64,000 nt of DNA from a candidate division WOR-3 bacterium (GTDB taxonomy: Bacteria > Hydrothermota > UBA3072), in assembly GCA_016930175.1 (NCBI GenBank), contig JAFGHJ010000046.1, positions 1,073 through 65,072 of the forward strand, read 5' to 3'. The position numbers and the translations under genes are program-made. The notes under the pieces were generated by a model that was not told where the DNA came from, did not search any database, and saw nothing but the letters and a program-made list of their open reading frames with translations. This document shows, piece by piece, positions 28,008 to 64,000 of this stretch (positions are counted from its first letter, which is position 1; every line of letters starts with the position of its first letter).

Positions 28008-28026
28008 TTTAAACTACCCTCATGCA

Positions 28027-29352: not shown

Positions 29353-30854
29353 AAAATAATACGCACCTCCGTACCTTCACCTAAAGCACTTTCAACGTCT
29401 ATGTCCCAGTTATGCAGTTCTATTATTTTCTTCACTATAGGAAGCCCAAAACCAAAACCTTCCTTAAAATGTGTATAAAAAGGAGAGAATATTTTATTTA
29501 AATCCCGCTTCTGTATACCGCATCCATCATCCTTAATAAAGAGTATTGTTGACCCCTTATCTTTTTTCGCTCCAAAAGCAAGATTTCCTCCATTCGACAT
29601 TGCTTTTAAAGAATTTGAACCAAGATTTAAAAAAACACTTTTGAGAAGATTATAATCCCCTTTTATCGAAATATCACCGGACACCTCGTTACTTAACTTA
29701 ATATTTTTATTAAAAAACTTACTTTGTTTTAACTCGACTATAACATCTTCAATAAGTTTACTAACACCAATCTCTTTATTCTTTAAATCAAAACTCTTAG
29801 TAAAATCCAAAAAGCTTTCAACTAAATAATCCAGTCTGTCAGATTCCTTTATTATAACTTCTTTAAGCTTTTCATTTTTATCCTTCTTGCCCTCGGGACA
29901 AGGCCCTATCAATTCGGCCGATGCCCTAATAGAAGAAACAGGATTCCTTACCTCGTGTGCAAGATTAGCCGCAAAATTACCAAGAGTCACAAGCTTATCT
30001 CTCATTTGCATTTTTCTTTCTATCTCTTTTTCCTCAGTTTTATCGTTAATCATTAAAATGGTTCCTTTACCATCTAATAAGCTACTACTTCTTCTTACCA
30101 TAAATACTTTATCTCCACTCTCAAGTTCCAGTTGTTTTTCTTCTCCCATTAAAATCCTTTCAATAGGCTCTTTAAAAGGGACCCTTGTAACATCCAAAAG
30201 GACATTTCCCGGAAAAAGTGGCACTCCAAGAAAGTTTGAAGACTTAGAGTTACTCCAGACTATACGACCACCTTCGTCTACTGTAACGATACCGTAATCA
30301 ATTGCTTCTACAATATCAGAGATATCAACTTTGACTCTGGTAAGTTGTTCCCTTAAAACTTGAACAATCAGGGACGAAACCGCAGCGGTAAAAATAAAAA
30401 CGAAAGAATATACAACAAATTCAATCAAAACGATATCAAGAGGTGGAAATTCTGGCAGACTTATAAGAATCAAACCTGTAGGAATTTTCTCTGTAAAAAA
30501 GAGTGACACCAGCCCAAAAGATAATATAGAATAACCACTCACAATAAAAGAATCCACAGGAAACAACAGATAAGCGCTCAAGACAATCAACGGAAGATAA
30601 AAAGAAACAAATGGACTTAAAGCAGATCCCGTAAAAACAATAAGAAAAGAAATATAAGTTATATCTAATAAAAGATTATACAACTTCACTTTTCGTTGAA
30701 TAAACAAAACAAATACTTCATCTATTATAAAAACAAAGAATAGAACAAGCAAAGGTAAAACGCTTTTACCTCTTTCTCTGAATACGCAAATCAGAGAAAA
30801 TAAAAGGATAAATAGAATAGCTCTATATAGGCAATATCTCTTAGTTTGACTCAC
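29349..30854 (-). CDS. Sensor histidine kinase (PilS-like; multi-TM N-terminus, PAS, HisKA, HATPase)
   Basis: Six-plus TM helices, then a PAS-like region, an H-box LAHEVRNPVSSI and G1/G2 ATPase motifs. Operonic with the sigma-54 regulator. Confidence 0.85.
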   Translation of the reverse strand: MSQTKRYCLYRAILFILLFSLICVFRERGKSVLPLLVLFFVFIIDEVFVLFIQRKVKLYNLLLDITYISFLIVFTGSALSPFVSFYLPLIVLSAYLLFPVDSFIVSGYSILSFGLVSLFFTEKIPTGLILISLPEFPPLDIVLIEFVVYSFVFIFTAAVSSLIVQVLREQLTRVKVDISDIVEAIDYGIVTVDEGGRIVWSNSKSSNFLGVPLFPGNVLLDVTRVPFKEPIERILMGEEKQLELESGDKVFMVRRSSSLLDGKGTILMINDKTEEKEIERKMQMRDKLVTLGNFAANLAHEVRNPVSSIRASAELIGPCPEGKKDKNEKLKEVIIKESDRLDYLVESFLDFTKSFDLKNKEIGVSKLIEDVIVELKQSKFFNKNIKLSNEVSGDISIKGDYNLLKSVFLNLGSNSLKAMSNGGNLAFGAKKDKGSTILFIKDDGCGIQKRDLNKIFSPFYTHFKEGFGFGLPIVKKIIELHNWDIDVESALGEGTEVRIIL

Positions 30855-30867
30855 GAAATCCTTTCTA

Positions 30868-32073
30868 TTACATAAACTGCTGAGCCATTTTGAAAATCGG
30901 AAGATACATTGCCATAACCATACCGCCTATAACACCTCCAAGAAGAAGTATCACAAGAGGCTCAAGAGCATTCATAAGGTTCGCTACAGCCTGATCAACC
31001 TCATCGTCATAAAAATCTGCCACTTTTGAAAGCATCTCATCCAATCCTCCTGTTTGTTCTCCTATCGTAATCATTTGAACAACCATTGGAGGGAACAGGG
31101 CTTTTTCTTTACTTAAGGGATCAGCAATAGATTCTCCCTGCGCTATTGAAGTTCGAGACCTTAGAACAGCATTCTCGACCAATTTATTACCAGTGGTTCC
31201 TGCTGTGATTTCAAGAGCATCAAGTATATTAACACCCGACGAAAGGAGTGTAGAAAGAGTTCTCGAAAATCTGGCAATTGCTTGTTTCTTTATCAAAGTA
31301 CCAAAAATCGGCAGCTTTATTAAAAAAGAATCGATCTGAAGATGTCCGACTTCAGTCTTGTAATAATATCTAATAAAAATAATTAAACCTACTGCCGCAG
31401 CCGCGATAATAAAGAAATACTTCCTTAAAAAATCACTTAAAGCGATAACCACCCTTGTGGGTAGCGGCAATTGACCACCGAGATCTTTGAACAACTGTGC
31501 AAATACCGGAATTACAAAAGTCAGCAAAACAGCAACAGCCATAACAGCAACTATAACAATAGCTGCCGGATAAACCATAGCTCCTTTCACTTTTCTCTTT
31601 ATGGAATCTGCTTTTTCGAGATAATCGGCAAGCCTGGCAAGAATAGTCGCAAGGGAACCTCCTTTCTCTCCGGCCTCCACCATATTAACATACAAATCTC
31701 CAAAAATTTCCTTATGTTCCCTCAAGGCATCGGCTAAAGTAGAACCTCCTTCTACTGCCGAGATTAAATCTTTCAATATGTCTTTAAACCTTTCCGATTC
31801 GACCTGAGCCACCTGAATATCAAGACATTTTATTAAAGGTAAACCCGCATTAATCATAACCGAAAATTGCCTTGTAAAAACAGAAATAGCTCTGCTGGAA
31901 ATCCTCCCTTTTAAGAAGGGAATAGTTATTTCCTTCGGTTTAGAGCGTATCGAGGTCGGAACAATTTTTCTCTCTCTCAATATTCTCTGGACTTCAGCAG
32001 GGTTCGCCGCAGTAATTTCTCCATTTTCTATTGTGCCACTTGGAGTTCTACCTTTCCACAGATAATCAGGCAT
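30868..32073 (-). CDS. pilC: Type IV pilus inner-membrane platform protein PilC (GspF family)
   Basis: 401 aa with two T2SSF repeats (the ...QFSVMINAGLPLIKCL... and ...LLSSGVNILDAL... blocks) and three TM segments. Confidence 0.9.
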   Translation of the reverse strand: MPDYLWKGRTPSGTIENGEITAANPAEVQRILRERKIVPTSIRSKPKEITIPFLKGRISSRAISVFTRQFSVMINAGLPLIKCLDIQVAQVESERFKDILKDLISAVEGGSTLADALREHKEIFGDLYVNMVEAGEKGGSLATILARLADYLEKADSIKRKVKGAMVYPAAIVIVAVMAVAVLLTFVIPVFAQLFKDLGGQLPLPTRVVIALSDFLRKYFFIIAAAAVGLIIFIRYYYKTEVGHLQIDSFLIKLPIFGTLIKKQAIARFSRTLSTLLSSGVNILDALEITAGTTGNKLVENAVLRSRTSIAQGESIADPLSKEKALFPPMVVQMITIGEQTGGLDEMLSKVADFYDDEVDQAVANLMNALEPLVILLLGGVIGGMVMAMYLPIFKMAQQFM

Positions 32074-32084
32074 CTTTTACCCCC

Positions 32085-33161
32085 TTAATGTAGAATTGTT
32101 TGTTTTTTAGCAATCATTTCCTCTAGTTCACCCGGTTCCCTGGAATAAGATATCGCATCCTCTATACTTATTTCTCGATCCATATACAATTTATAAAGTG
32201 ATTGATTCATTGTAATCATACCGAATTTTTGCCCGGCTTGCATGTTGGAGTACAACTGATGTGTTTTGTTATCTCTTATCAATGCTTTTACAGCCGGAGT
32301 ACCATAAAGAACCTCAACCGCAAGAGCTCTTCCGCCGGTTCTTTTCGGTATCAAACTCTGAGTAACAATACCTATAATAACAAAAGCTATTTGAGCTCTA
32401 ACCTGGTTATGCCTTTCAGGAGGGAAAGTATCAACTATTCTCGAAATAGATTCAACCGCTGAATTTGTATGCAAAGTGGCAATTGTAAGGTGACCGGTTT
32501 CCGCAACATTTAAAGCGGCTTCCATAGTCTCTCTATCCCTCATTTCGCCTATCATAACCACATCAGGATCCTGTCTGAGAATGTACTTTAACGCAATTGC
32601 GAATCCATCCGTATCCGAACCAACTTGTCTCTGGTTTACAATAGCTCTCTGATGTCTAAATAGATATTCTATTGGGTCTTCGATGGTAACAATATGAACT
32701 TTCCTCTCTCTATCTATCTTATCAACAACAGCCGCTAGAGTTGTAGATTTACCGCAACCTGTTGGTCCTGTTACAAGAATAAGACCCTTTTGCTTGTTCG
32801 CCATAGCAGCTATCACATCAGGCAAACCTAGCTGTTTAAAAGTCCTTATCTTAAAAGGAATAGTTCTTACCGCACAGGCCACCTGACCTCTCTGATAAAA
32901 AACATTAGCTCTAAATCGAGAAAGACCAGGTACCCCAAAGCTCAAATCGAGCTCTTTTTTCATTTCAAATTTCTTCTTTTGTTCGTCATTCAATATTGAA
33001 TAAACCAATTTCTCCAAATCATTCGGAGAAAGTGGGGCATAATTTGACTTTTCCAGTTGTCCGTCTTTTCGGTACATAGGTGGTGCAGCGGTAGTAAGAT
33101 GAAGGTCGGTTGCGCCTCGGCTTACCATTTCTTCCAGTAATGCTTTCATATCATAATCCAT
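32085..33161 (-). CDS. pilT: Twitching-motility retraction ATPase PilT
   Basis: 358 aa, Walker A LVTGPTGCGKSTT, Asp box and His box (GHLTIATLHTN) of the PilT/PilU family. No N-terminal GSPII_E_N domain. Confidence 0.9.
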   Translation of the reverse strand: MDYDMKALLEEMVSRGATDLHLTTAAPPMYRKDGQLEKSNYAPLSPNDLEKLVYSILNDEQKKKFEMKKELDLSFGVPGLSRFRANVFYQRGQVACAVRTIPFKIRTFKQLGLPDVIAAMANKQKGLILVTGPTGCGKSTTLAAVVDKIDRERKVHIVTIEDPIEYLFRHQRAIVNQRQVGSDTDGFAIALKYILRQDPDVVMIGEMRDRETMEAALNVAETGHLTIATLHTNSAVESISRIVDTFPPERHNQVRAQIAFVIIGIVTQSLIPKRTGGRALAVEVLYGTPAVKALIRDNKTHQLYSNMQAGQKFGMITMNQSLYKLYMDREISIEDAISYSREPGELEEMIAKKQTILH

Positions 33162-33183
33162 ATAATAACTCCTCTATAAAAAT

Positions 33184-34926
33184 TTAAGATTCAACGGTAA
33201 CTCTTAGAATCTCATCCGTAGTGGTAAGACCCCTTTTTAGCTTAATAATACCATCATCTCTAAGAGTTCGCATTCCTTCCTTTTGAGCGGCTTTTTGTAA
33301 ATCATCGGTTGAAGCTCCCTTTAGAATCATTTGTCTTATATTCATAGAGATAGGCATAACCTCCGTTACCGCGATTCTACCCCTGTAACCGCTGGAATTA
33401 CACTCGGGACATCCTGCTCCAGTTTCATAAATTTCACTATTCCTTATATCTTCTTCTGATATACCCATTGTTTTCAACAACTCAACTTTATCGCTCTGAG
33501 TAATATCTATTTTTTTTCTACAATTCTTACATACTTTCCTTAAGAGACGCTGTGCCTGTATTAAATTTAAAGAACTCGCTATCAAAAAAGGTTCTATACC
33601 AATATCCACCAAACGGTTCACCGCGCTGGGAGCATCATTGGTATGAAGAGTCGATAAAACGAGGTGACCAGTAAGAGCTGCTCTAATGGCAATCGATGCC
33701 GTATCTATTTCTCGAATCTCTCCAATAAGTATTATATTAGGGGATTGCCTTAAGAAAGCGCGTAGAGCATCAGGAAAATCAAATCCTATATCTTGATTTA
33801 CCTGAACCTGGTTTATTCCCTTAAGATTATATTCAACTGGATTTTCAACGGTCATAATATTTACTTCCGGTTTATTCAATGCAGAAAGAGCAGAATATAG
33901 AGATGTTGATTTTCCACTTCCTGTAGGGCCGGTAACAAGAATTAAACCATAAGGTCTAGCAATAGCTTTCTGAAACTCCCTGAGCGCATCCGGTTCGAAA
34001 CCAAGATCTTCCATATTTAACATAAGAGAAGATGGATCTAATATTCTCATCACAACTTTTTCGCCAAATACTGTAGGAATCACACTAACACGAAGGTCGA
34101 TAGCCTTCCCTTCAACTCTTATTTTTATTCTTCCGTCCTGATTAAGCCTTCTTTCCGAAGCATCCATAGTACCAGTCATTATTTTTATCCTCGTAGAAAT
34201 AGCATTTCTTAATCTATACGGCGGTTCCGCCACCTGCTGCAAAACACCATCGATTCTAAATCTTACACGAAGAGTCTTCTCATAAGGCTCAATATGGATA
34301 TCGGATGCTCCCTTCTTTACAGCAGAAGTAATCAAATAATTGACAAGTTTAATTACGGGTTTCTCCTGAGCCTCTGCCCTCCAATCCTCCTCTTCCTCCT
34401 CAAGATCAGACTTTCTGATAAAGATATTCTCGTCGCTTTCCTTAGCAAATATAAATTCTTCCTCTACCTCTTCTTCTTTCTTTCTTATTCTGTCTACTTG
34501 TTTAGTTACCGGATAAAATTGATCAAGAAGTTTCTTCATTTTCCAGAAAGTTACAACCACTGTCTCAACCTTCAAACCGGTCTTAAACTCAACCGCATCA
34601 ATTGCTTCTAAATCGCCGGGATTAACCACTCCCAAAATTAATTTTTTCCCTTTCCTTCTTATTGGAAAAACCTGGTACCGTTGTGCCATATCGGGCGGAA
34701 TCAGGGAAATCAGACTTTTATCTACGTCTTCAGGCTTGATATCAATAGAAGAAACCCGAAACTGCAAAGAAAGCGTTTTTGCCAGTTCGCTATCCGTAAT
34801 AAATCCTTCCTCAATAAGCACTGCTCCAAGCCTTTTTGCTACTTGTTTTTGCTTTCGCAGCGCCACGTTTAACTGCTCGGGTGTTATTTTCCCGGCTTGA
34901 ACCAGAATTTCACCAAGTCTCTCCAT
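33184..34926 (-). CDS. Type IV pilus/T2SS assembly ATPase, PilB/MshE-like, with an MshEN-type c-di-GMP-binding N-domain motif
   Basis: N-terminal RLGAVLIEEGFITDSELAKTLSLQ fits the MshEN motif RLGxxL(V/I)xxG(I/F)(L/V)xxxxLxxxLxxQ. Walker A LVTGPTGSGKSTS, a tetracysteine CxxC...CxxC, and a GspE C-terminus. Confidence 0.88.
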   Translation of the reverse strand: MERLGEILVQAGKITPEQLNVALRKQKQVAKRLGAVLIEEGFITDSELAKTLSLQFRVSSIDIKPEDVDKSLISLIPPDMAQRYQVFPIRRKGKKLILGVVNPGDLEAIDAVEFKTGLKVETVVVTFWKMKKLLDQFYPVTKQVDRIRKKEEEVEEEFIFAKESDENIFIRKSDLEEEEEDWRAEAQEKPVIKLVNYLITSAVKKGASDIHIEPYEKTLRVRFRIDGVLQQVAEPPYRLRNAISTRIKIMTGTMDASERRLNQDGRIKIRVEGKAIDLRVSVIPTVFGEKVVMRILDPSSLMLNMEDLGFEPDALREFQKAIARPYGLILVTGPTGSGKSTSLYSALSALNKPEVNIMTVENPVEYNLKGINQVQVNQDIGFDFPDALRAFLRQSPNIILIGEIREIDTASIAIRAALTGHLVLSTLHTNDAPSAVNRLVDIGIEPFLIASSLNLIQAQRLLRKVCKNCRKKIDITQSDKVELLKTMGISEEDIRNSEIYETGAGCPECNSSGYRGRIAVTEVMPISMNIRQMILKGASTDDLQKAAQKEGMRTLRDDGIIKLKRGLTTTDEILRVTVES

Positions 34927-34929
34927 ATC

Positions 34930-36630
34930 TTACCTAACCTGTGTCTCGCGAGCTACTTCCTCAAGAGTTGTAAGTCCATCTATTATCTTCTTAATTCCTT
35001 CATCACGCAAAGAACTCATTCCTTCTTTTCTGGCTTGCTCTTCCACCTCATCGGACGTTCTTCCATCAATAATCATTTTCCTGATATTTGAACTCATTGG
35101 CAAAACCTCGAATAATCCTAACCTTCCTTTATACCCTGTTTTCCTACAACTCTCACAACCTCTTCCATGAAAAATTTTCCGTCCGTTCAGCCTTGCCGGA
35201 TCAAAACCCAGTTTTAATATTTCTTCATTTGAAATCTCTAGAGGAGCTTTACATTTCGTACAAATTGTTTTTATTAGTCGTTGTGAAATAATAAGTTCAA
35301 GTGTTGAAGCCAAGAGAAACGGAGCAACGCCCATGTTAATAAGACGGGTAACTGTTGCTGCCGCAGAATTCGTATGCACTGTAGAAAGAACAAGGTGTCC
35401 TGTAAGCGAAGAACGTATGGCGATATCCGTTGTAGGCTTGTCTCTTATTTCTCCAACCATGATAACATCAGGATCCTGGCGCAAAAAAGACTTCAAGGCT
35501 TCCACAAAAGTAAGACCAATTTCCTCTCTTACCTGCAATTGATTAACCCCAAAAAGAGTATACTCCACAGGGTCCTCAGCTGTAGAAACATTTATATCTA
35601 TATTATTGATTTCCTTTAAAATCGAATATAACGTAGTAGTTTTTCCTGATCCTGTTGGTCCGGTAAGCAAAATAATCCCGTGTGGCTTTTTTATAGCTTT
35701 AAGTGTATCATCCAGAGCCTTTTGCTCAAAGCCCAATTTGGTTAGATCAAATTCCATACTCTCTTTATCAAGAACTCTTATACCTACTTTCTCGCCAAAA
35801 ACCGTAGGCACAGTTGCAATTCTAAAATCTATTTTTCTCCCCATAAGCTCCGCCTGAAATCTACCATCCTGGGGCCTTCTTTTTTCCTGTATCTTAAGAT
35901 TAGACATGACTTTAAGTCTTGATACAACAGCCTTATGGAGACGCCACGGAGGAGGTTGAAAATTGTGAAGAACTCCGTCGACTCTCATTCTAACTCGAAT
36001 ATCTTTTTCAAAAGGCTCAATATGAAGATCGCTCGCTCTTTCAATTACAACTTTCTTTAAAAGAAAATTAACATATTGAACAACCGGACCAGAATCTATT
36101 TGCGCAGCAAGAGCAGAGACTCCCTCCCCTTCCTCCTCCTCATCCTTCGCCAATAATTCAACCGAATCCTCTGCAAGACCCATTTCTTCCGCTACTTCGT
36201 CTTCTATAGCTTTAGTCTCGTAATGTTCTTTTAAAATTTTTCTAATAGATTTTTCAGAAGCTACTAATGGCTTAATTTCATAACCTGTTCTGAAGCGAAT
36301 ATCTTCTTGAGCCTGTAAATCATTTGGATTTATCATAGCTAAATATAAGGTTTTCCCCTTCTTTTCTACCGGCACACACTCATAAGCTCCTGCAATATCC
36401 GGAGAAATTAAATTTAAAACTTCATCATCTAAGGGATAATCGGAAAGTACTACGCCTTTTACATTTAAATTCTTTTCGAGAGCCTTAATCAACTGTTCTT
36501 CAGTGACATAACCTAATTCTATAAGGTTTGCGCCTAAACGTCCTCCTTCTTCTCTCTGCCTTTTAAGCGCTTCTTTCAACTGATCTTCTGTTATGGCACC
36601 ATCTAATAATAGAATCCTTCCTACTCTCAC
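34930..36630 (-). CDS. pilB: Type IV pilus assembly ATPase PilB (GspE family), paralog 1
   Basis: GSPII_E_N domain, Walker A LLTGPTGSGKTTT, tetracysteine motif CTKCK...CESCRKTGYKGR. Its N-motif RLGANLIELGYVTEEQL only partly matches the MshEN consensus. Confidence 0.88.
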   Translation of the reverse strand: MRVGRILLLDGAITEDQLKEALKRQREEGGRLGANLIELGYVTEEQLIKALEKNLNVKGVVLSDYPLDDEVLNLISPDIAGAYECVPVEKKGKTLYLAMINPNDLQAQEDIRFRTGYEIKPLVASEKSIRKILKEHYETKAIEDEVAEEMGLAEDSVELLAKDEEEEGEGVSALAAQIDSGPVVQYVNFLLKKVVIERASDLHIEPFEKDIRVRMRVDGVLHNFQPPPWRLHKAVVSRLKVMSNLKIQEKRRPQDGRFQAELMGRKIDFRIATVPTVFGEKVGIRVLDKESMEFDLTKLGFEQKALDDTLKAIKKPHGIILLTGPTGSGKTTTLYSILKEINNIDINVSTAEDPVEYTLFGVNQLQVREEIGLTFVEALKSFLRQDPDVIMVGEIRDKPTTDIAIRSSLTGHLVLSTVHTNSAAATVTRLINMGVAPFLLASTLELIISQRLIKTICTKCKAPLEISNEEILKLGFDPARLNGRKIFHGRGCESCRKTGYKGRLGLFEVLPMSSNIRKMIIDGRTSDEVEEQARKEGMSSLRDEGIKKIIDGLTTLEEVARETQVR

Positions 36631-46458: not shown

Positions 46459-47580
46459 TTGACATTTAACACATATCCACATATAATCATTTTATATATG
46501 GAGGTTTATGTGAGATCATTAAAATTATATATTATTATTTCACTTTTTGTTATTTTCTTTAATCTATCAGCTCAAATCGTAATCGAATCGGATGAGATAC
46601 CGCATGAGGTCGGTATTCATTGGATAAAAAACAGTTCAATAGAAGTTAACGTTAATCTCGGAACAACAGGTGGACCTCAAACCTGGGATTTTACATCTCA
46701 ACCTATGGGCGCTGAAAACAGTTATCTCACAATTGTTGATCCTGCTTCCAGTCCTTATATAGACTCACTTCCAAGCGCAAATCTTGTTTACCGGTCACCT
46801 TCAGATTCTGATACTGTTTACCAGTATTATAATCGCAATTCTGATTTTTTAATAATGTTGGGTATGGGAGGAATATCCACCACTACACCTTTCTTCTGGA
46901 GATACGAACCAACAGATTCAATCCCATCCCCTCAAAGCTATGGAAATTCACATAGATTCAGATATGGATTTACTGAAACGATAAGTCCAGGCAATTATAT
47001 GGAATATTTCCATTATGGTATTCAGAAATATGATGCCTTCGGAACCGTTAATATACCTTATGGCATTTATGAATGCCTGCGTATTCGCACTTACGATACC
47101 TGTGCTATGATAATGTATTTTAGCGATATTCCAATTCTTTACGATACGACAACTTATATAAATTACCAATTCGTGGCAGAAAATTATGCAGCCGTAGTCT
47201 GTGTTAAGAGTCATCCAGACGAAATAGACACAAATTATTCTGAAGCCTATATACTTGAGAGACTAACATCATTTACGAGTGGCATTAAAGAACACGGCAA
47301 ACCAACAGATATAGAATGCACGCACTATCCACAGATATTTTCAGACTATACTACAATACAATATTCTTTACCGGAAACGTATAATATAGAGTTAACAGTA
47401 CATGACCTAACAGGAAGAACTGTAAGAAAACTGGTTAAAAATACCCAAGAGAAAGGGAATTATTTATGTAAATGGTACGGAAATAATGACGCCGGCAAAA
47501 AACTCTCCAGTGGAATATATTTTTACCGATTAAAAGTTGGAAACAATAAATTTACTAATAAGGTCTTATTAATACGGTAA
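46459..47580 (+). CDS. Secreted protein of unknown function with a type IX secretion C-terminal sorting domain
   Basis: Signal peptide and C-terminal YSLPETYNIELTVHDLTGRTVRKLV...SGIYFYRLKVGNNKFTNKVLLIR (Por_Secre_tail pattern). Confidence 0.7.
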   Translation: MTFNTYPHIIILYMEVYVRSLKLYIIISLFVIFFNLSAQIVIESDEIPHEVGIHWIKNSSIEVNVNLGTTGGPQTWDFTSQPMGAENSYLTIVDPASSPYIDSLPSANLVYRSPSDSDTVYQYYNRNSDFLIMLGMGGISTTTPFFWRYEPTDSIPSPQSYGNSHRFRYGFTETISPGNYMEYFHYGIQKYDAFGTVNIPYGIYECLRIRTYDTCAMIMYFSDIPILYDTTTYINYQFVAENYAAVVCVKSHPDEIDTNYSEAYILERLTSFTSGIKEHGKPTDIECTHYPQIFSDYTTIQYSLPETYNIELTVHDLTGRTVRKLVKNTQEKGNYLCKWYGNNDAGKKLSSGIYFYRLKVGNNKFTNKVLLIR

Positions 47581-55163: not shown

Positions 55164-56016
55164 CTTTAGCTATTCCCAAAAGATTTCCGCGGTTATCCTT
55201 AACCTGATATAAACCTCTGGGATAGAATCCTCTTACCTTACCTCCATGAACAAAATCCCATACTGCATCTTCTCTAAGAGTTATTGTCTTTAAATGAGGT
55301 AGGGCTTCCCTAAACTCTATTATTTCAAAATTTCCTTTCTCAATATCAGAAAGTTTCCAGGAATCATCAATTTCATAAGGACCAACTCTAATTCTAATAA
55401 GTTTACTCAAATGCGCTCCGCAACCAAGAGCTTCCCCTACATCTCTTGCTAAGGAACGCATATAAGTACCCCTATGTGCTAAACACCTGAATTCCAAAAA
55501 AGGCGGAGAAAAATCCACTAAATCGAATTCCTTTACCAACACTTCTCTATAAGGTAAACTCTTAATCTTTTCTCCCTTTCTGGCCTTATTATATAACCTC
55601 TCGCCATTCTTTTTTACCGCACTGTATAATGGAACCACCTGATTGAAAGAACCCTTAAAGCGCGAAAAAACTTTTTCAACTTCCTTTTTAGTTAAACTCG
55701 GAACCTCGCCTTCACGTATAATCTTTCCATCAGGGTCATCAGTATCAGTAACCTCACCTAATTTTATAGTACCGAGATACTCTTTTTCATCACCTATATA
55801 ATCCATTAATTTCGTTGCCTTACCATAAAGAATTAATATTAATCCCTCGGCGAATGGATCTAGCGTACCACCGTGACCAGCTCTTTTAAGATATAACAAA
55901 CTTTTAACTTTATTTAAAAGTTCCGTCGTTCTCATACCCGGAGGTTTGTTGACTAAGATTAGCCCATCAGAAGGAAAGTTGAGCTGAGATTCTGTAGTTT
56001 GCCGTTTCAAAGTCAT
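55117..56016 (-). CDS. truB: tRNA pseudouridine(55) synthase
   Basis: LVNKPPGMRTTELLNKVK...GHGGTLDPFAEG, the catalytic Asp motif of TruB. The start may be downstream of the listed Met. Confidence 0.9.
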   Translation of the reverse strand: MTLKRQTTESQLNFPSDGLILVNKPPGMRTTELLNKVKSLLYLKRAGHGGTLDPFAEGLILILYGKATKLMDYIGDEKEYLGTIKLGEVTDTDDPDGKIIREGEVPSLTKKEVEKVFSRFKGSFNQVVPLYSAVKKNGERLYNKARKGEKIKSLPYREVLVKEFDLVDFSPPFLEFRCLAHRGTYMRSLARDVGEALGCGAHLSKLIRIRVGPYEIDDSWKLSDIEKGNFEIIEFREALPHLKTITLREDAVWDFVHGGKVRGFYPRGLYQVKDNRGNLLGIAKGETYAVQPIKVFSDS

Positions 56017-57010
56017 AGATTTCTTGATCTACGGAAAGATCAAAGTGAAATTTCTGGTATTGAAAACCTGCTCCGAAAGTAGGTCCTTCTCTCTGACCAA
56101 CTCTATCAAGAAAATAACCAAGTCTTAATGAAAAAAGATTATTAAGAGTATACTCAATACCCATAGCTTTCCATGAATCCCTCCATATCTCTTGAAAGTC
56201 AGTATATTCAACACCTATAAGGATTTTTATTAAATCCATGTTTAAATTTAACTTATGTGTTTCTTCTTCCAGAAGCCCGAACGAAAGTCCTAATCTTAAA
56301 GTTCGAGGGAGTGGATCGGATTCTCCATTTTCAACATAGCTGATATCCGGACCGAAATTCTGCAAGGAAGCCCCTATCCTAACAGTCTTGAGCCACTCCA
56401 TACCAAACAATTTAGCATTAATAAAATCATTCCATATATACAACAAAGAAACATCTAAAGCCCATGCCTGACCGGTTCCACCAGCGCCTGAAAGCCCAAG
56501 ATAATCTCTAAGCACAATTTCAGGTGCCAGGAACGAACGAATATATTTCATTCCGATACCGACACCCAGATTTTCCGATAATTTCAAACAACCACCAGCC
56601 TTAAAAGCTATATCGTATGTAACCCACTCCTCATAAAAATCCCTAAGGCTATCGGAAACTTCAGTCTCACCAGTAGTAAGATAGGTCACAGCAAAATCTA
56701 AATTTAAGCCCTCACCTAAGGGAATTAAAAAAGTCAGATACTCATAATACATACCCGGATATAAACCCGGCAACCAATTTGCGTGTTGCCATCCTATTTG
56801 TTTATTTTCTACAAAAGCTAAGGTAGCATCATTATAATAAGTAGAAAAGATATCTCCATCCGAGGCAGTAAATGCCCCTCCCATCGAAGTCGCTCGAGAG
56901 CCCGGAAAAATCATCATAAAAATTGCTCCGGCTTCAAGGGAACTAGCAAAAACACTTAAAGGTAAAATTATTAATAAAATCATGAACGAAAAAACCGTTC
57001 TTCTAAACAT
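55967..57010 (-). CDS. Outer-membrane beta-barrel protein (C-terminal Phe; PorV/PorP-like T9SS-associated barrel is a possibility)
   Basis: Signal peptide, alternating amphipathic beta-strands and the terminal ...RISAQLSF aromatic signature of OMP barrels. No specific family can be confirmed. Confidence 0.5.
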   Translation of the reverse strand: MFRRTVFSFMILLIILPLSVFASSLEAGAIFMMIFPGSRATSMGGAFTASDGDIFSTYYNDATLAFVENKQIGWQHANWLPGLYPGMYYEYLTFLIPLGEGLNLDFAVTYLTTGETEVSDSLRDFYEEWVTYDIAFKAGGCLKLSENLGVGIGMKYIRSFLAPEIVLRDYLGLSGAGGTGQAWALDVSLLYIWNDFINAKLFGMEWLKTVRIGASLQNFGPDISYVENGESDPLPRTLRLGLSFGLLEEETHKLNLNMDLIKILIGVEYTDFQEIWRDSWKAMGIEYTLNNLFSLRLGYFLDRVGQREGPTFGAGFQYQKFHFDLSVDQEIYDFETANYRISAQLSF

Positions 57011-59257: not shown

Positions 59258-59294
59258 ATTAAAAACTCAAAGGGGCTCTAAGCAGAGCCCCTTT
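59258..59294 (-). terminator. Rho-independent terminator downstream of tonB (minus strand)
   Basis: Perfect 11 bp stem AAAGGGGCTCT / AGAGCCCCTTT with loop AAGC (59269-59294). On the minus strand it is followed by UUGAGUUUUU. Confidence 0.6.
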
Positions 59295-59309
59295 ATAAAG
59301 ATTTTTCCT

Positions 59310-59936
59310 TTAATTTTCCAATTTAAAAATGACCGGATAGGCGAGACGAACTGCCACAGGCTTATCGTTTTGCATAGCAGGGCTAAATTTTAACTGATAA
59401 GCTCTCTCCTTTGCGATTTTATCAATAGCGGGATATAAAGGCTTTGTAATAATAACATTTCTAACTGTACCCTTAGTGTCTATCCACAATTCAAGATAAA
59501 GTTTGCCTTCTATTCCTAACCTTCTGGCCACTTCCGGATAAGTGCCTTGTCGCATAATGCCTTCATTCAGAGGTTTTGGAGCAACTTCATAAGCGACAAA
59601 CCTGGGCGGCGCAAAGTCCACATCTGCTTCTTTCTTTTCCAGTCCACTAAAATCAGTCTTCTCTATGGTCTCCGCTTCCACATCTTCGTCACTCTTGGCA
59701 GCCACAGGCATTTTAGGCTTAGGTGGAGGTGGAGGCTTAACAATATTCTGAAGCTGCGGCGGTAGCTTATCAACCTGTATGGGCTTTGAAAATTTAGGTA
59801 GGTAGGGCTGCCTTTTTGTTTCAGGAATAAACTTAAAGCCCAGAATTAATAATACGAGAGTAATCAAAAAACCAATCCTTATATTTAGGGGATACTGCTT
59901 CTTCAAGTCGACAATCTTCTCTTTCATATTGTTCAA
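59310..59936 (-). CDS. tonB: Energy transducer TonB (Pro-rich linker plus TonB C-terminal domain)
   Basis: N-terminal TM anchor, a PPPPPKPK linker and the C-terminal TonB fold (YPEVARRLGIEGKLYLELWIDTKGTV). Confidence 0.85.
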   Translation of the reverse strand: MNNMKEKIVDLKKQYPLNIRIGFLITLVLLILGFKFIPETKRQPYLPKFSKPIQVDKLPPQLQNIVKPPPPPKPKMPVAAKSDEDVEAETIEKTDFSGLEKKEADVDFAPPRFVAYEVAPKPLNEGIMRQGTYPEVARRLGIEGKLYLELWIDTKGTVRNVIITKPLYPAIDKIAKERAYQLKFSPAMQNDKPVAVRLAYPVIFKLEN

Positions 59937-60337
59937 CCCCTTTTCTTTCTTGCAGCAAGATGAATCCTTAAGACTGAAGCATCGACGAATTCGTTCAGCA
60001 CATCCTCTACAAGCTTGTAGCCAGTAGCTTTGTCACATTTAACCGAAACAATTATATCCGGATTTATTTGTCTTTTTCTTGCCATTATATCAGATATTCG
60101 TTCTGTAGAAACAAGCGCATCATCAATCGAAACAAGTCCGTTCTTAGATATCCAAATATGAGTCAAATTCCTGGCTGGCATTTTTTCTGCTGCTTCCACC
60201 TGCGGTATAATTACCTGAAGACCAGTCTCGGCTCTGAAAGTAGTAGTAACCATAAAAAATATCAAAAGCAGAAAAGCAATATCCGCCATTGAAGCTGTTG
60301 GTATTGTAGCCTGCACTTTTTCTCTAGTCAGTTTCAT
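59933..60337 (-). CDS. exbD: Biopolymer transport protein ExbD/TolR (copy 2)
   Basis: 134 aa; ASMADIAFLLLIFFMVTT is the ExbD TM signature. Confidence 0.88.
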   Translation of the reverse strand: MKLTREKVQATIPTASMADIAFLLLIFFMVTTTFRAETGLQVIIPQVEAAEKMPARNLTHIWISKNGLVSIDDALVSTERISDIMARKRQINPDIIVSVKCDKATGYKLVEDVLNEFVDASVLRIHLAARKKRG

Positions 60338-60345
60338 AAACTACC

Positions 60346-60750
60346 TCATTCCTCGGATGAAGGCGCCAAAGAGTATCTTTCAGCATTCGCCAGTCTTAAT
60401 TTGTCTAAGGCATTGATCATGTATTCATACTGTGCTCTCGGATGAGTTTTTATAGAAAAAATCGCATCTTTATTCTCAGCAAGAATTTTCTTTACCTCAT
60501 CTACCAACTGATCTTGACTAACAGGTTCACCGTTAAGTCTGAGTTCACCCTTCTCTTCCACATATATTCTCTGAATATTTTCGGACTTAACCTTGACTTC
60601 CTCTCCTTTTTCCGGAAGCATAATTTGAAGTCCCACTTCATTGGCAAACACAGTGGTAACCATAAAGAAAATTAAAAGCAGAAAAGCTATATCCGCCATT
60701 GAAGCTGTAGGTATTTCCGCACTTTTTATCTTTTTTTCGTGTAGTTTCAA
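60346..60750 (-). CDS. exbD: Biopolymer transport protein ExbD/TolR (copy 1)
   Basis: 134 aa paralog with the same TM signature. Confidence 0.88.
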   Translation of the reverse strand: MKLHEKKIKSAEIPTASMADIAFLLLIFFMVTTVFANEVGLQIMLPEKGEEVKVKSENIQRIYVEEKGELRLNGEPVSQDQLVDEVKKILAENKDAIFSIKTHPRAQYEYMINALDKLRLANAERYSLAPSSEE

Positions 60751-61380
60751 CTATGCCTCCAATAAGGCATCCATCAAAGCAGCAGCCGCTTCCTCCATCG
60801 ATCTAGTATAACCATTTACTTTTTGAGAGAAAAACGCATGAGCTCCTGAAATTGGAATTGCCAAACACAAACCTGTAGCAGTCGTAATAAGAGCTTCTGA
60901 AATACCGGCCGCAACAAGAGTAGCTTCAACCGTACCTGCGAGAGCTATGGCATCGAAAGCATTTATCATTCCGGATACCGTTCCAAGGAACCCAAGCATG
61001 GGAGCAATATTAGCCAACGAAGCCAGAATTAACATTCCTCTATCAAGGAAAGCCAATTCTCTTGTAGCGTATCTTGTCATAACTTCCTCAAAAACTTGTT
61101 TATCTTTAGTTCTTTTATCCTGTTCTTTATATTTTTCTATTGCCGGTCCAAAAACACGTGCGGCAGGAGACGGAAATTGTCGGCAGTACTCAAGAGCAGT
61201 AGAAGCTCCGTCTTTCTTAAATATTTCTATAAGTTCTTCGGCAAAGTCTTCAGGATCTAATCTCAAACGAGAAAATGTTATCAACCTTTCAATTATGTAA
61301 GCAAAACCAATAATCGCACAAAAAAGCAGTGGCCACATTGCCCATTTACCTCTTAAAAAGAACTCAATAGCAGCTTGCAT
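60751..61380 (-). CDS. exbB: MotA/TolQ/ExbB proton-channel protein
   Basis: 209 aa with three TM helices and the conserved LGFLGTVSGMINAF block. Confidence 0.9.
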   Translation of the reverse strand: MQAAIEFFLRGKWAMWPLLFCAIIGFAYIIERLITFSRLRLDPEDFAEELIEIFKKDGASTALEYCRQFPSPAARVFGPAIEKYKEQDKRTKDKQVFEEVMTRYATRELAFLDRGMLILASLANIAPMLGFLGTVSGMINAFDAIALAGTVEATLVAAGISEALITTATGLCLAIPISGAHAFFSQKVNGYTRSMEEAAAALMDALLEA

Positions 61381-61452
61381 ATAACCTCCTTTTCTTCATT
61401 TGTAGACAATATTTAACTTTTACATAATACATAACTATACTCCTATTCAGAT

Positions 61453-61803
61453 CTACCTCGAAATCCAACGATAATATATTGTAATTCCTATGAGTGTCAA
61501 GAGGGCTGCTCCAAGAATAGAAATTGCTTCTAATGAGTTAGCGCTTAACATCCCTTTAATCAATGGAAAAAGATCTGCCGGATCTGCAATAGAAAGATTT
61601 CTGCCGAAATATAAAACGCGATAAAAATGGATGATTGCTGATAAAACTAAAAAAATAGAACCAACAACTGGTAAAATCCATATCCCCTTTCTCTCAATAA
61701 GAGGAAGAAGTCTTTTTATAATTAAACCATAAATATAAAGCGATAACGTAAAAATAAGTATACCAATAGCAAAAAGAATCTCAAAAGGGATATCAACTCT
61801 CAT
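61453..61803 (-). CDS. Small membrane protein (3 TM), unknown function
   Basis: 116 aa hydrophobic ORF between the Roadblock genes and exbB on the same strand. Overlaps the next ORF by 4 nt. Confidence 0.45.
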   Translation of the reverse strand: MRVDIPFEILFAIGILIFTLSLYIYGLIIKRLLPLIERKGIWILPVVGSIFLVLSAIIHFYRVLYFGRNLSIADPADLFPLIKGMLSANSLEAISILGAALLTLIGITIYYRWISR

Positions 61804-62171
61804 CTGGAACCTCCTCTCCTAGGGCTTACAACTCTTCTAAAACGCAACGCACCAAGTAAAGATAAAATTCCCGAAAGAAAGAATAGTGAATATGCAATTC
61901 TTCCGGTATTAACCGGCATTTTTAGATTACCCTGAAATACTGAAAGCAATTGTAAAATAGCATAAACAAGAACCCCGGACGGCGCAATAATAATAAATTG
62001 CCATTCTGTTTTCTTTCTCAAAACCATTTCATATCTTCTAGCAATTATTCCGAAACGAACAAAAGTAATCCATAAAAAAACTGCTGCGGTAATCATTATC
62101 CAACTATTCAAAGATCCCATTCTGGTAATCTCTTCTGGCAGAGAAACCAGAAAAAATGAAAATAAATTCAT
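61800..62171 (-). CDS. Small membrane protein (3-4 TM), unknown function
   Basis: 123 aa hydrophobic ORF overlapping the neighbouring genes on both sides by 4 nt. Confidence 0.45.
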   Translation of the reverse strand: MNLFSFFLVSLPEEITRMGSLNSWIMITAAVFLWITFVRFGIIARRYEMVLRKKTEWQFIIIAPSGVLVYAILQLLSVFQGNLKMPVNTGRIAYSLFFLSGILSLLGALRFRRVVSPRRGGSR

Positions 62172-62932
62172 CTTTCCTCCTCTATCTTCTTCATTATTTC
62201 TTCTTTTAATTTTTTAGCTTTTGAAGGTCCAACTATTAGAGCGGCAGCATCTTTAAGTGATTGAGCAACTTCTAAAACCTGGTCTTTTGTTGGCTTTTCT
62301 CTATTTACCCCGCTATCCTCAATCACATTAGATACTATATCCAAAGAAAAATCACCAAGATAATTACCTGCTATTTCTTCAATATCATCTATAACTCTCG
62401 CATCTAAAATAACCTTAGGTACACTTACTTCTTTTATTTCTTCAACTTCTTCTTTCTTTTCCGCTTTTAAAGCCCTGGTTTCTGCTTCCTTCGCTTTTAT
62501 TTCTTCTTTCTCCGCCTCTTTTTCTTCAGCGAATATTTCTTCTTTTTTAACTTTTTCCGCTTCTATCTTTTCTTTTTTCTCAACTACAACTCTTTCCGGT
62601 TTTTTCTCCTTTACTCTCGCCTTTGCTCTTACTGCACTTTCTTTTTCATAAATATATTTCAAAATGCTCTCAACATTCTCATCCTTATTTGCAACCACAC
62701 CGACAAAATTGTTTCTATAATAAAATATAATTACTTTTTTATCACCACCCTTAACAACCAACTGCCGGAAAGGAAGGGAACCGATAGCATCAAAAGTCTG
62801 GGTTAGAACAAGGTCTATTCTATCTAAAACCTCCATTCCGCTATCAAGTTTACCCACGTACTCTTTTGGTGGACCTAAATTAAAAACGGCCTCTAAATTA
62901 AAATTATCTTTTAAATCCTGTAAATCTATCAT
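62168..62932 (-). CDS. Roadblock/LC7 (MglB-like) domain protein with a Lys/Glu-rich linker and an uncharacterised C-terminal domain
   Basis: The N-terminal 110 aa fit the Roadblock/LC7 fold (LVLTQTFDAIGSLPFRQLVVKGGDKKVIIFYY.NNFVGVVANKDE). The central region is a KE-rich low-complexity stretch. Confidence 0.6.
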   Translation of the reverse strand: MIDLQDLKDNFNLEAVFNLGPPKEYVGKLDSGMEVLDRIDLVLTQTFDAIGSLPFRQLVVKGGDKKVIIFYYRNNFVGVVANKDENVESILKYIYEKESAVRAKARVKEKKPERVVVEKKEKIEAEKVKKEEIFAEEKEAEKEEIKAKEAETRALKAEKKEEVEEIKEVSVPKVILDARVIDDIEEIAGNYLGDFSLDIVSNVIEDSGVNREKPTKDQVLEVAQSLKDAAALIVGPSKAKKLKEEIMKKIEEER

Positions 62933-63600
62933 TATTTATTCTTTTCGCTGATTTCTCTAATTACTTTTTGAACAATTATTTTCGTTTGCTGTTTACCAAA
63001 CTCACTCAAAGCCTTTTTAACAATAAAGTCGAGCAATAATTTCATAAATTTATTTATTTCATCCCTATTTAATCCTTCCGAATTTCCAACCTTCAATTCC
63101 ATACCCTCTAACTTGATTAAACCTTTAACCTTATCATCTTTAGAAAGAGCCGAAAGACCACTAGCTATATAACCTCTCCACATCTCAGAATCAGAATCAC
63201 TCACGAATTCTCTGATCAACATATTCAATTGCTCCGACCTATCCCTTAAGAGGTTTCCTATCTCCGAAGAAACGTCCTTCTTCAATCCTTCAAGGCTCTC
63301 TTTCACCTTTTCTTCAATATCTTCAATATTTTGTTCTAATACAAGACCGAGATAATTTCCGTCGAAAGGTACAATAACAATAGTATCTCTACCAATTCCT
63401 TTTATCGAACTTATCCCACCAATCTTACATGAATCTGCTATAATCTCAGCAGCGGAACCCGTAAAAGCAACCAGGTCGTCGATATTACCCGGAGTTATTC
63501 CTCCACTATTTAAAATCGACCCATCTTCAGAAGATACAAGAGCAAATCCCTTAATATCTTTAACTTTCATTAATCCATCTAACGGTATATCAGAACTCAT
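62932..63600 (-). CDS. Roadblock/LC7 (MglB-like) domain protein with a C-terminal extension
   Basis: The N-terminal about 110 aa are Roadblock-like (GFALVSSEDGSILNSGGITPGN...DTIVIVPFDGNYLGLVLE). Confidence 0.6.
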   Translation of the reverse strand: MSSDIPLDGLMKVKDIKGFALVSSEDGSILNSGGITPGNIDDLVAFTGSAAEIIADSCKIGGISSIKGIGRDTIVIVPFDGNYLGLVLEQNIEDIEEKVKESLEGLKKDVSSEIGNLLRDRSEQLNMLIREFVSDSDSEMWRGYIASGLSALSKDDKVKGLIKLEGMELKVGNSEGLNRDEINKFMKLLLDFIVKKALSEFGKQQTKIIVQKVIREISEKNK

Positions 63601-64000
63601 TCTTTATTTCCTTCAGTTTTTTCTTTACCAATAGCTTCCCGAGAACTTCCGTAGCTTTTCCCTGCAGACAATTAAGTACTTCAGAAAAAAATTCTTTGGT
63701 TCTTTCAAGATCTAAAGAAAATTTTTCGGTATTGATATTCAAACTCTTCCCATTAAAAGAAACAGCTTTCTTCACCTCATACTTATCAATAAGCTCATTA
63801 AGACCTTCAAGCCATGGACCATCACCAAAAGCTTTTAAAAAAACATTGGTGTCTTTAAGTCCTTTTTCAATAATTCTCTTTCTTTCTTCCGGATCATAAA
63901 GCAAAGACTCTTTAAATAACCAGGATAATGCTTTCAAAGTATCCAGTTCCGGAAGAGGACTCAAACTAATGATTTCGGATAATTTTTTCTTTCCGTCAGC
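63590..64000 (-). CDS. Hypothetical protein, 5'-truncated by the window edge
   Basis: The reading frame stays open to the end of the window and the listed TTG start is arbitrary. No motif is recognised in the visible C-terminal 136 aa. Confidence 0.4.
   Translation of the reverse strand, partial: ADGKKKLSEIISLSPLPELDTLKALSWLFKESLLYDPEERKRIIEKGLKDTNVFLKAFGDGPWLEGLNELIDKYEVKKAVSFNGKSLNINTEKFSLDLERTKEFFSEVLNCLQGKATEVLGKLLVKKKLKEIKNEF

Follow-up and report, generated by a model that had tools for sequence, protein, structure and literature searches.

Why do genes for two candidate Roadblock proteins and two small membrane proteins stand directly upstream of an exbB-exbD-exbD-tonB set? The question arose from a contig of a candidate division WOR-3 bacterium (JAFGHJ010000046.1, positions 1,073 to 65,072 of the forward strand), of which we analyzed the whole stretch of 64,000 nucleotides, referred to here as the window. 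A sequence-only reading had seen at its far end a proton-driven motor joined to a Roadblock regulatory module, and had named a TonB system with unrelated neighbours as the mundane alternative. We found that the window carries, in its WOR-3 form, an envelope gene cluster conserved in the Fibrobacteres-Chlorobi-Bacteroidetes (FCB) superphylum. From the gene content, the folds, a shared C-terminal domain and the conserved neighbourhood we favour, at about even confidence, a Roadblock/PATAN platform that is tethered at the membrane and coupled to a Ton system of its own, which suggests a cytoplasmic control or scaffold layer on a TonB system.

Nine consecutive open reading frames (ORFs) on the minus strand fill the window from 64000 down to 59310, just as first described, and the first of them is cut by the window end. 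All nine have conserved homologues in many metagenome-assembled genomes (MAGs), indicating that they are real genes and not chance ORFs. The two soluble proteins following the cut gene product are called X1 and X2 and the two small membrane proteins TM1 and TM2; the features of the cluster are as follows.

63590..64000, minus strand: 3' part of the gene for a PATAN/DUF4388 protein, encoding the C-terminal 136 aa of 276 aa (assigned from the overlapping contig L001 and Pfam)
62932..63600, minus strand: X1, 222 aa, cytoplasmic, with a predicted Roadblock fold at the N-terminus (aa ~7-88), then a long helix and a helical C-terminal domain that is conserved
62168..62932, minus strand: X2, 254 aa, cytoplasmic, with a predicted N-terminal Roadblock fold (aa 1-100), then an E/K-rich linker and a C-terminal domain of three helices that is conserved
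61800..62171, minus strand: TM1, 123 aa inner-membrane protein with 3 predicted transmembrane (TM) helices and basic cytoplasmic loops (hydropathy and charge)
61453..61803, minus strand: TM2, 116 aa inner-membrane protein with 3 predicted TM helices (hydropathy and charge)
61473..61500, minus strand: sigma-70-type promoter-like site TTGACA-16-TATATT at the 3' end of TM2, directed toward exbB
60751..61380, minus strand: exbB, MotA/TolQ/ExbB proton-channel subunit (Pfam MotA_ExbB)
60346..60750, minus strand: exbD paralogue 1 (Pfam ExbD)
59933..60337, minus strand: exbD paralogue 2 (Pfam ExbD)
59310..59936, minus strand: tonB (Pfam TonB_C)
59268..59295, minus strand: intrinsic-terminator-like hairpin 3' of tonB

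The genes from PATAN to TM2 overlap by 1-11 nt and the junctions from exbB to tonB are similarly tight. Read in order, the junctions of PATAN-X1-X2-TM1-TM2-exbB-exbD-exbD-tonB measure -11, -1, -4, -4, +72, 0, +8 and -4 nt, so that the largest gap, between TM2 and exbB, equals the upper limit of 72 nt given earlier. Proteins of the window were identical to the hypothetical proteins JW879_09925 and JW879_09920 of a candidate division WOR-3 MAG.

The neighbourhood was compared across 77 loci (L001-L077). These came from exact-protein look-ups (L006-L008 among them), from a TM1-based scan of GTDB species genomes (41 loci, L009-L049) and from a degenerate DNA pattern for the X1 motif IDFLVKKAVEE (28 metagenome loci, L050-L077), and ORFs at the fetched loci were labelled with purpose-built hidden Markov models (HMMs). 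The order PATAN-Roadblock-Roadblock-TM1-TM2 recurred across 69 related loci belonging to WOR-3, Stahlbacteria, TA06, Edwardsbacteria, UBP2 and unnamed lineages, and in most lineages ExbB-ExbD-ExbD-TonB followed TM2 either directly or two genes further on. Among the 41 GTDB loci found via TM1, the full PATAN-X1-X2 trio was present in 33, ExbB, ExbD and TonB lay on the same strand in 22, and ExbBD or a TonB-dependent receptor was found in 31, the remainder being mostly incomplete contigs. In the metagenomic lineage, exbB was the next gene after TM2 in 21 of the 22 loci that had sequence beyond TM2. The arrangements seen were these.

WOR-3, Stahlbacteria and one TA06 MAG: DAO or another gene, PATAN-X1-X2-TM1-TM2-ExbB-ExbD-ExbD-TonB, RecG
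L032, L034 and L036: a four-gene membrane set in duplicate (DUF6754 and three polytopic proteins), an LplA-like protein, then PATAN through to TonB
L028-L030 and L040 (labelled Cloacimonadota): TPR protein, LplA-like protein, PATAN-X1-X2-TM1-TM2, NHL protein, TonB-dependent receptor, ExbB-ExbD-ExbD-TonB
Metagenomic lineage L050-L077: DUF6754 set, PATAN through to TM2, ExbB-ExbD-ExbD-TonB, lipoprotein, receptor, large protein with a type IX secretion system (T9SS) tail
Edwardsbacteria and UBP2: the module ending in TM1-TM2, T9SS cargo, receptor, large T9SS-tailed protein, PorV-like protein

The link between the module and the Ton genes was thus kept whether the upstream flank held DAO, the LplA-like gene or the DUF6754 set, and whether the downstream flank held RecG, a lipoprotein-receptor pair or Big1063. 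It also outlasted the insertion of the NHL protein and receptor genes between TM2 and exbB in L028-L030 and L040. ExbB remained 50-56% identical across lineages where X1 falls to 23-27%. Had relatives never carried the Roadblock genes together with exbBD-tonB, this would have spoken against a module, and the comparison clearly showed the opposite, as the association was kept through changes on both flanks and through insertions.

The four genes after TM2 were what they had been taken for, with Pfam matches above gathering score for exbB (MotA_ExbB, 2.6e-29, 102 bits), exbD paralogue 1 (ExbD, 1.2e-25, 90.4 bits), exbD paralogue 2 (ExbD, 1.9e-22, 80.1 bits) and tonB (TonB_C, 1.5e-14, 54.6 bits). 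The two ExbD paralogues were 39% identical, and the TM segments of both bear the motif SMADIAFLLLIFFMVTT, which puts an Asp in the membrane helix. TonB has ~18 cytoplasmic residues followed by one TM helix, a Pro-rich spacer and TonB_C. The NCBIfam equivalogs (exbB TIGR02797, ExbD TIGR02803/4, tolQ and tolR) all scored far below their cut-offs, and the window ExbB scored higher on the tolQ equivalog (109.7 bits) than on the exbB one (78.7 bits). A Tol-Pal identity, raised by the higher tolQ/tolR scores, was considered and ruled out, since the set includes a TonB_C protein and TolA, TolB and Pal are all missing nearby. The same two points make Ton rather than Tol the probable subfamily. The likeness to the Myxococcus motor, claimed earlier because both have one ExbB-type and two ExbD-type subunits, held for the composition and lost its discriminating value, since exbB-exbD-exbD-tonB is a common arrangement in FCB bacteria and occurs in their ordinary Ton operons. 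On the plus strand at 9181-10920, ~50 kb from the Ton genes, the window encodes a classical 579-aa TonB-dependent receptor with Plug and beta-barrel, which is an ordinary client for a Ton system.

Transcription signals were sought by consensus scans, in which a match alone is no proof of function. A promoter-like TTGACA-16-TATATT with 11 of 12 consensus matches lies at 61500..61473, within the end of TM2 and 92 nt 5' of the exbB start. Its TTGACA was invariant in 15 of 15 sequences of the window clade while adjacent third codon positions varied, which suggests that TTGACA within TM2 may be under dual coding and regulatory constraint. In L032, L034 and L036 we found TTGACA-16/17-TATAAT or TATACT in the TM2-exbB spacer instead, and in L001 a TTGACA-16-TAATAT site stands 5' of the PATAN gene. 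The interval from TM2 to exbB contained no terminator that we could find; past tonB, the terminator reported before was recovered as a hairpin at 59295..59268, its 12-bp stem holding 6 G-C pairs and a T-rich tail following it. A long transcript from an upstream promoter together with a separate exbB-tonB transcript therefore appears likely from these signals. The tight packing had been read as arguing for co-transcription. The tight junctions are real, but they are no proof of obligate co-transcription because a near-consensus predicted promoter lies just 5' of exbB.

Could the Ton set simply be a general-purpose one that serves ordinary nutrient receptors, with the PATAN, Roadblock and TM genes as unrelated neighbours kept in place by inherited synteny? 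Several observations weigh in that direction and against a coupled platform. The promoter-like site of exbB is strong and recurs from lineage to lineage, which makes it probable that the Ton block can be expressed on its own, and an ordinary TonB-dependent receptor is encoded elsewhere in the window (9181-10920), so that the window Ton genes could be no more than a housekeeping set. We see no evident physical link, and TonB is nearly devoid of a cytoplasmic part. The clearly unrelated recG likewise stays adjacent within WOR-3. All the lineages belong to one superphylum, and inherited synteny contributes to the signal. The module also occurs apart from ExbBD (L033, L035, L043, L045 and L065); in Edwardsbacteria and UBP2 no ExbBD-TonB was found within 10 kb, and a receptor, Big1063 and PorV follow the module there. 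In L007 (9135-11361) and L008 (9135-11364), which belong to one lineage, ruvB comes after the trio, with neither TM1/TM2 nor Ton genes within 10 kb. TM1-TM2 lack the trio in L041, and both there and in L038 they precede Opp-like binding proteins. However, the adjacency holds where X1 is only 23-31% identical, both flanks differ at that distance, and one lineage has genes inserted in between. Where ExbBD is missing, a TonB-dependent receptor adjoins TM2, and therefore a link to the Ton pathway recurs in different forms. We consider unrelated neighbours an unlikely explanation because the co-location, as judged from gene order, spans several deep lineages despite rearranged flanks and insertions.

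What, then, are the proteins upstream of the Ton genes? X1 and X2 had been called Roadblock/LC7 proteins, and a match to the Robl_LC7 HMM had been named as the check. Taken literally, that check went against both: neither X1 nor X2 of the window matched PF03259 even at E<=1. Within the wider families, PF03259 was matched by 3 of 25 diverse X1 members, the best at 5.5e-5 and 23.3 bits (cut-off 23), and by none of 26 X2 members, leaving no sequence bridge for X2. Pfam and NCBIfam searches with X1, X2, TM1 and TM2 returned nothing meaningful, and alignment profiles of X1, X2 and the PATAN protein run against PDB sequences gave nothing significant and found no Roadblock protein. An exhaustive HMMER search with the X1 profile yielded only 33 representative clusters. 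Relatives of X1 in Edwardsbacteria and TA06 are annotated as roadblock/LC7 domain-containing by both NCBI and JGI. The fold, on the other hand, was borne out by structure prediction: the X1 and X2 monomers were predicted as alpha-beta-beta-alpha-beta-beta-beta(-alpha) sandwiches that superpose on solved Roadblock proteins. The best structural match of X2 was MglB, and LAMTOR subunits ranked among the top matches. On these models X1 and X2 have the Roadblock fold. Their profiles matched each other weakly and only in the beta3-beta5 region.

The long C-terminal extensions described for both proteins proved to be a conserved helical domain in X1 and a linker plus three-helix domain in X2. The E/K-rich linker of X2 (residues ~100-170) was predicted to be disordered, with a pLDDT score (predicted local distance difference test) of <50. 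Its length varies greatly even between close relatives, the proteins ranging over 199-292 aa.

The truncated gene at the window end encodes a PATAN-domain protein, as the proposed DUF4388/PATAN HMM search confirmed. The public contig L001, identical to the window over the shared part, carries the full 276-aa gene, preceded by a DAO-family oxidoreductase gene. The full-length L001 protein matched DUF4388 (PF14332) at 2.4e-10 and 40.9 bits (cut-off 25) over aa 7-95, and the PATAN domain itself thus falls past the window end. The C-terminal ~110 aa of the PATAN protein were homologous to the C-terminal domain of X1 (hhalign probability 97.7, E 2.5e-12), and within L006 the same homology was detected by BLASTP at 1e-16. 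The C-terminal domain of X2 had no significant match to this PATAN/X1 domain (E 0.53). X1, X2 and the PATAN protein have no predicted TM helices and form a soluble trio, and because the PATAN protein and X1 have a C-terminal domain in common, the three look like parts of one assembly. Residues ~140-196 of the PATAN protein (L001 1386-2216; window ~63730-63900) gave weak, non-significant profile matches to the winged-helix proteins AspA and SSO2273 (E 0.03-0.16), and this middle region may be a winged-helix-like domain.

Both mini-proteins have the three helices ascribed to them, and the X2/TM1 and TM1/TM2 junctions overlap by the 4 nt reported. Their loops and tails are basic, which by hydropathy and charge fits an N-out, C-in topology. 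TM1 and TM2 showed no homology to each other and matched no Pfam family. The two are better conserved than X1, TM1 keeping 45-50% identity over phylum-level distances versus 23-31% for X1, and TM2 was always paired with TM1 in the related loci. In L041 (9959-18384) and L038 (4157-8242), TM1-TM2 are followed by two SBP_bac_5 oligopeptide-binding proteins, and past that pair L041 has putative genes for permeases as well as two ABC ATPases that bear Walker A motifs. These neighbours point to a possible link of TM1/TM2 to peptide uptake.

MglB is a homodimer that stimulates GTP hydrolysis by MglA, and its cognate MglA gene is usually adjacent. We therefore scanned for Walker A motifs in ORFs of <420 aa (<350 aa in L050-L077) in the window and within 10 kb at the 77 loci. 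The window held no small P-loop GTPase, in line with the earlier remark that no MglA-like GTPase is visible, and only larger ATPases in it bear Walker A. No MglA-like GTPase lay within 10 kb at any of the 77 loci, where Walker A occurred only in RuvB and ABC ATPases; an MglA gene in cis was thus ruled out. A role as partner of a small GTPase, of the GTPase-activating or guanine nucleotide exchange kind, had been suggested for the Roadblock proteins; it is unsupported in cis for X1 and X2 because no such GTPase gene accompanies them at any locus.

An MglA-like GTPase might be encoded elsewhere, in which case the module could be a regulator of polarity or type IV pili resembling the PATAN response regulators of cyanobacteria or MglB/MglC, and its proximity to Ton genes would be incidental. 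PATAN domains of Synechocystis regulators bind PilB1 and PilC (10.1101/2021.06.11.447907), and PATAN genes were noted earlier as neighbours of mglB and mglA genes (Makarova 2006, as cited in PMC4316618). The best structural match of X2 to MglB also fits, as does the presence in the window of two PilB-like ATPases, PilT, PilC and a sigma-54 two-component pair. But these pilus genes lie ~25 kb from the module, with ~22 kb of unrelated genes in between, and across the 77 loci the module never adjoins pilus genes and almost always adjoins TM1/TM2 and Ton components. With no small GTPase within 10 kb at any locus either, we regard a pilus or polarity regulator as very unlikely. The window genes in question form a type IV pilus-type set on the minus strand at 26874-36630, with two PilB-like ATPases (T2SSE+MshEN), a PilT-like ATPase and PilC (T2SSF), and the set also holds a histidine kinase, a sigma-54 response regulator and a GWxTD-domain protein.

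The PATAN-MglB neighbourhoods are themselves the nearest precedent for the trio, since there, too, a PATAN gene directly adjoins Roadblock-fold genes. As PMC4316618 recounts them from Makarova 2006, they include MglA-type GTPases and are discussed with motility and type IV pili, whereas the present cluster has no GTPase in cis. Set against that account, the partners here are TM1/TM2 and Ton components, and the PATAN protein shares its C-terminal domain with X1.

For the cluster as a whole, the closest analogue appears to be the Agl-Glt/MglB system of Myxococcus, of which the window cluster is not a member. Agl-Glt combines a TolQR-type motor having two different TolR-like subunits with proteins bearing a TonB C-terminal domain and with MglA/MglB (PMC11135422, PMC11761067). 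Both systems have a proton channel of the Tol/Exb type, in which a single channel subunit is combined with two plug subunits that differ from each other, and TonB-C-terminal-domain proteins that reach the outer membrane; in Myxococcus the Roadblock protein MglB acts on the machine from the cytoplasm (PMC11135422, PMC11761067). Unlike in Agl-Glt, the Roadblock genes here number two and share a gene cluster with the motor, their products bear additional C-terminal domains, and a PATAN protein and two 3-TM proteins accompany them. No MglA gene was found within 10 kb and no Glt homologues were identified, and the window TonB is without cytoplasmic signalling domains such as the ZnR/GYF of GltJ and the FHA of GltG, which bind MglA/MglB/AglZ.

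Does this likeness make the cluster a motility or adhesion engine of the Agl-Glt type, in which a platform-steered motor moves or tensions outer-membrane or surface proteins for gliding or regulated adhesion and not for nutrient import? The one channel with two different plug proteins recalls AglR-AglQ-AglS, and Agl-Glt likewise uses TonB-C-terminal-domain proteins and recruits MglB (PMC11761067, PMC11135422). The clusters of relatives hold beta-propeller proteins with T9SS tails, a large protein that also has such a tail, PorV and TPR proteins, a content compatible with such an engine; yet the surface proteins, together with the CarboxypepD_reg-Plug receptor and the lipoprotein found beside them, would fit a nutrient-uptake locus equally well, and the oligopeptide-binding proteins past TM1-TM2 in L038 and L041 point to uptake. 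The window TonB lacks the cytoplasmic domains by which GltJ and GltG contact MglA/MglB, and no MglA, AglZ or Glt homologues were seen. We think a motility engine rather improbable. The link to motility drawn in the sequence-only reading found no backing: nothing tested indicated motility, TonB has the ~18 cytoplasmic residues noted above, and the outer-membrane partners in relatives resemble a TonB-dependent receptor set.

Compared with canonical ExbB-ExbD-TonB systems, the window set has the same Pfam domains, the same exbB-exbD-exbD-tonB order, the Asp in both ExbD TM segments, and the Pro-rich spacer with TonB_C, and TonB-dependent receptors occur in the window and in the related clusters. 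It differs in having candidate dedicated cytoplasmic partners and a conserved small membrane pair encoded upstream, for which we found no counterpart in the searched literature; we know of no canonical Ton system with either. The Ragulator (LAMTOR) complex offers a further, looser parallel, as it too has heterotypic Roadblock-fold proteins that a separate anchor keeps at a membrane beside transport machinery. The likeness is one of analogy: the present cluster has no Rag-type GTPase, and the membrane is another one.

We return to the platform coupled to a Ton system as the reading we favour. In it, the PATAN protein, X1 and X2 would assemble into a cytoplasmic platform, and TM1 and TM2 would hold this platform at the inner membrane. 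The platform would be functionally coupled to a dedicated Ton motor made of an ExbB pentamer, two different ExbD subunits and TonB. Going by the neighbours in relatives, the motor probably serves a TonB-dependent receptor of the outer membrane, along with a lipoprotein, surface proteins of the T9SS type and PorV. The platform would most likely set when, where or whether the Ton motor assembles or engages, and would in this way be a regulator or organiser of TonB-dependent outer-membrane transport with no GTPase gene in cis. That the proteins form a complex, that it is tethered to the membrane, that it is coupled to ExbBD and in which direction control runs are all steps that we infer.

A bolder version would have a Roadblock/PATAN switch that is free of a GTPase, or served by an unlinked one, and tethered by TM1/TM2. 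It would gate a dedicated ExbB-ExbD-ExbD'-TonB motor that serves not nutrient import but TonB-powered export, or that moves surface proteins of the T9SS type by way of an Oar-like receptor and PorV. TonB-dependent receptors can export proteins, as with Oar and PopC (PMC6434023), and because of that precedent we keep a secretion role in view, though as quite an improbable one. If true, it would add a third kind of proton-driven secretion or gliding engine to the FCB superphylum, and no Ton system before it would have had a control platform in the cytoplasm.

The prevailing view is that Ton and Tol motors are governed chiefly at the level of transcription and through their periplasmic or outer-membrane partners, and the only one with cytoplasmic Roadblock/GTPase input that is known to us is the Myxococcus gliding machine. 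The joining of two Roadblock proteins, a PATAN protein and two small membrane proteins to ExbBD-TonB in several uncultured phyla suggests that Ton-type motors came under control from the cytoplasm earlier, and in more lineages, than has been assumed. The earlier impression that a proton-motive-force motor with a Roadblock module had not been described agrees with our search of the literature on DUF4388, PATAN, Roadblock and MglB with ExbB/ExbD/TonB, which returned no description of this cluster. Every part is of a known kind, the PATAN-Roadblock neighbourhood included. New with respect to the searched literature are the conserved joining of the PATAN and Roadblock genes to TM1/TM2 and ExbBD-TonB, the C-terminal domain common to the PATAN protein and X1, and the lack of a GTPase in cis. 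The cluster gives a context to two protein families and two membrane-protein families so far without annotation, and its compact, GTPase-free set of five small proteins is suited to testing with the ExbBD complex.

Among the more distant genes of the window, one feature may belong to the periphery of the cluster.

55967..57010, minus strand: PorV/PorQ-family outer-membrane protein, two genes past tonB (after recG), a possible peripheral member

It matched NCBIfam PorV_fam (NF033709) at 197 bits (cut-off 90) and Pfam PorV at 2.8e-20, and corresponds to the PorV-like gene that closes the Edwardsbacteria/UBP2 cluster, being linked to the module by neighbourhood alone. Elsewhere in the window, the products of 18705-20132 and 46459-47580 have FlgD_ig-type C-terminal tails, which may be T9SS sorting domains.

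Upstream of the module, the four-gene membrane set stands directly 5' of PATAN in L032 (135-6865), L006 (1247-4560), L054 (256-3477) and most of L050-L077. Its members are DUF6754 (~360-420 aa) and polytopic proteins of ~210, ~280 and ~205 aa, and L032, L034 and L036 have the set twice; searches of Pfam and NCBIfam gave no match beyond DUF6754, and we found no literature on the set. A protein of 258-264 aa with an LplA/LipB-like lipoate ligase catalytic domain is encoded directly 5' of PATAN in L006 and many of L028-L048. In the window clade, the DAO oxidoreductase takes the place of this LplA/LipB-like protein 5' of PATAN.

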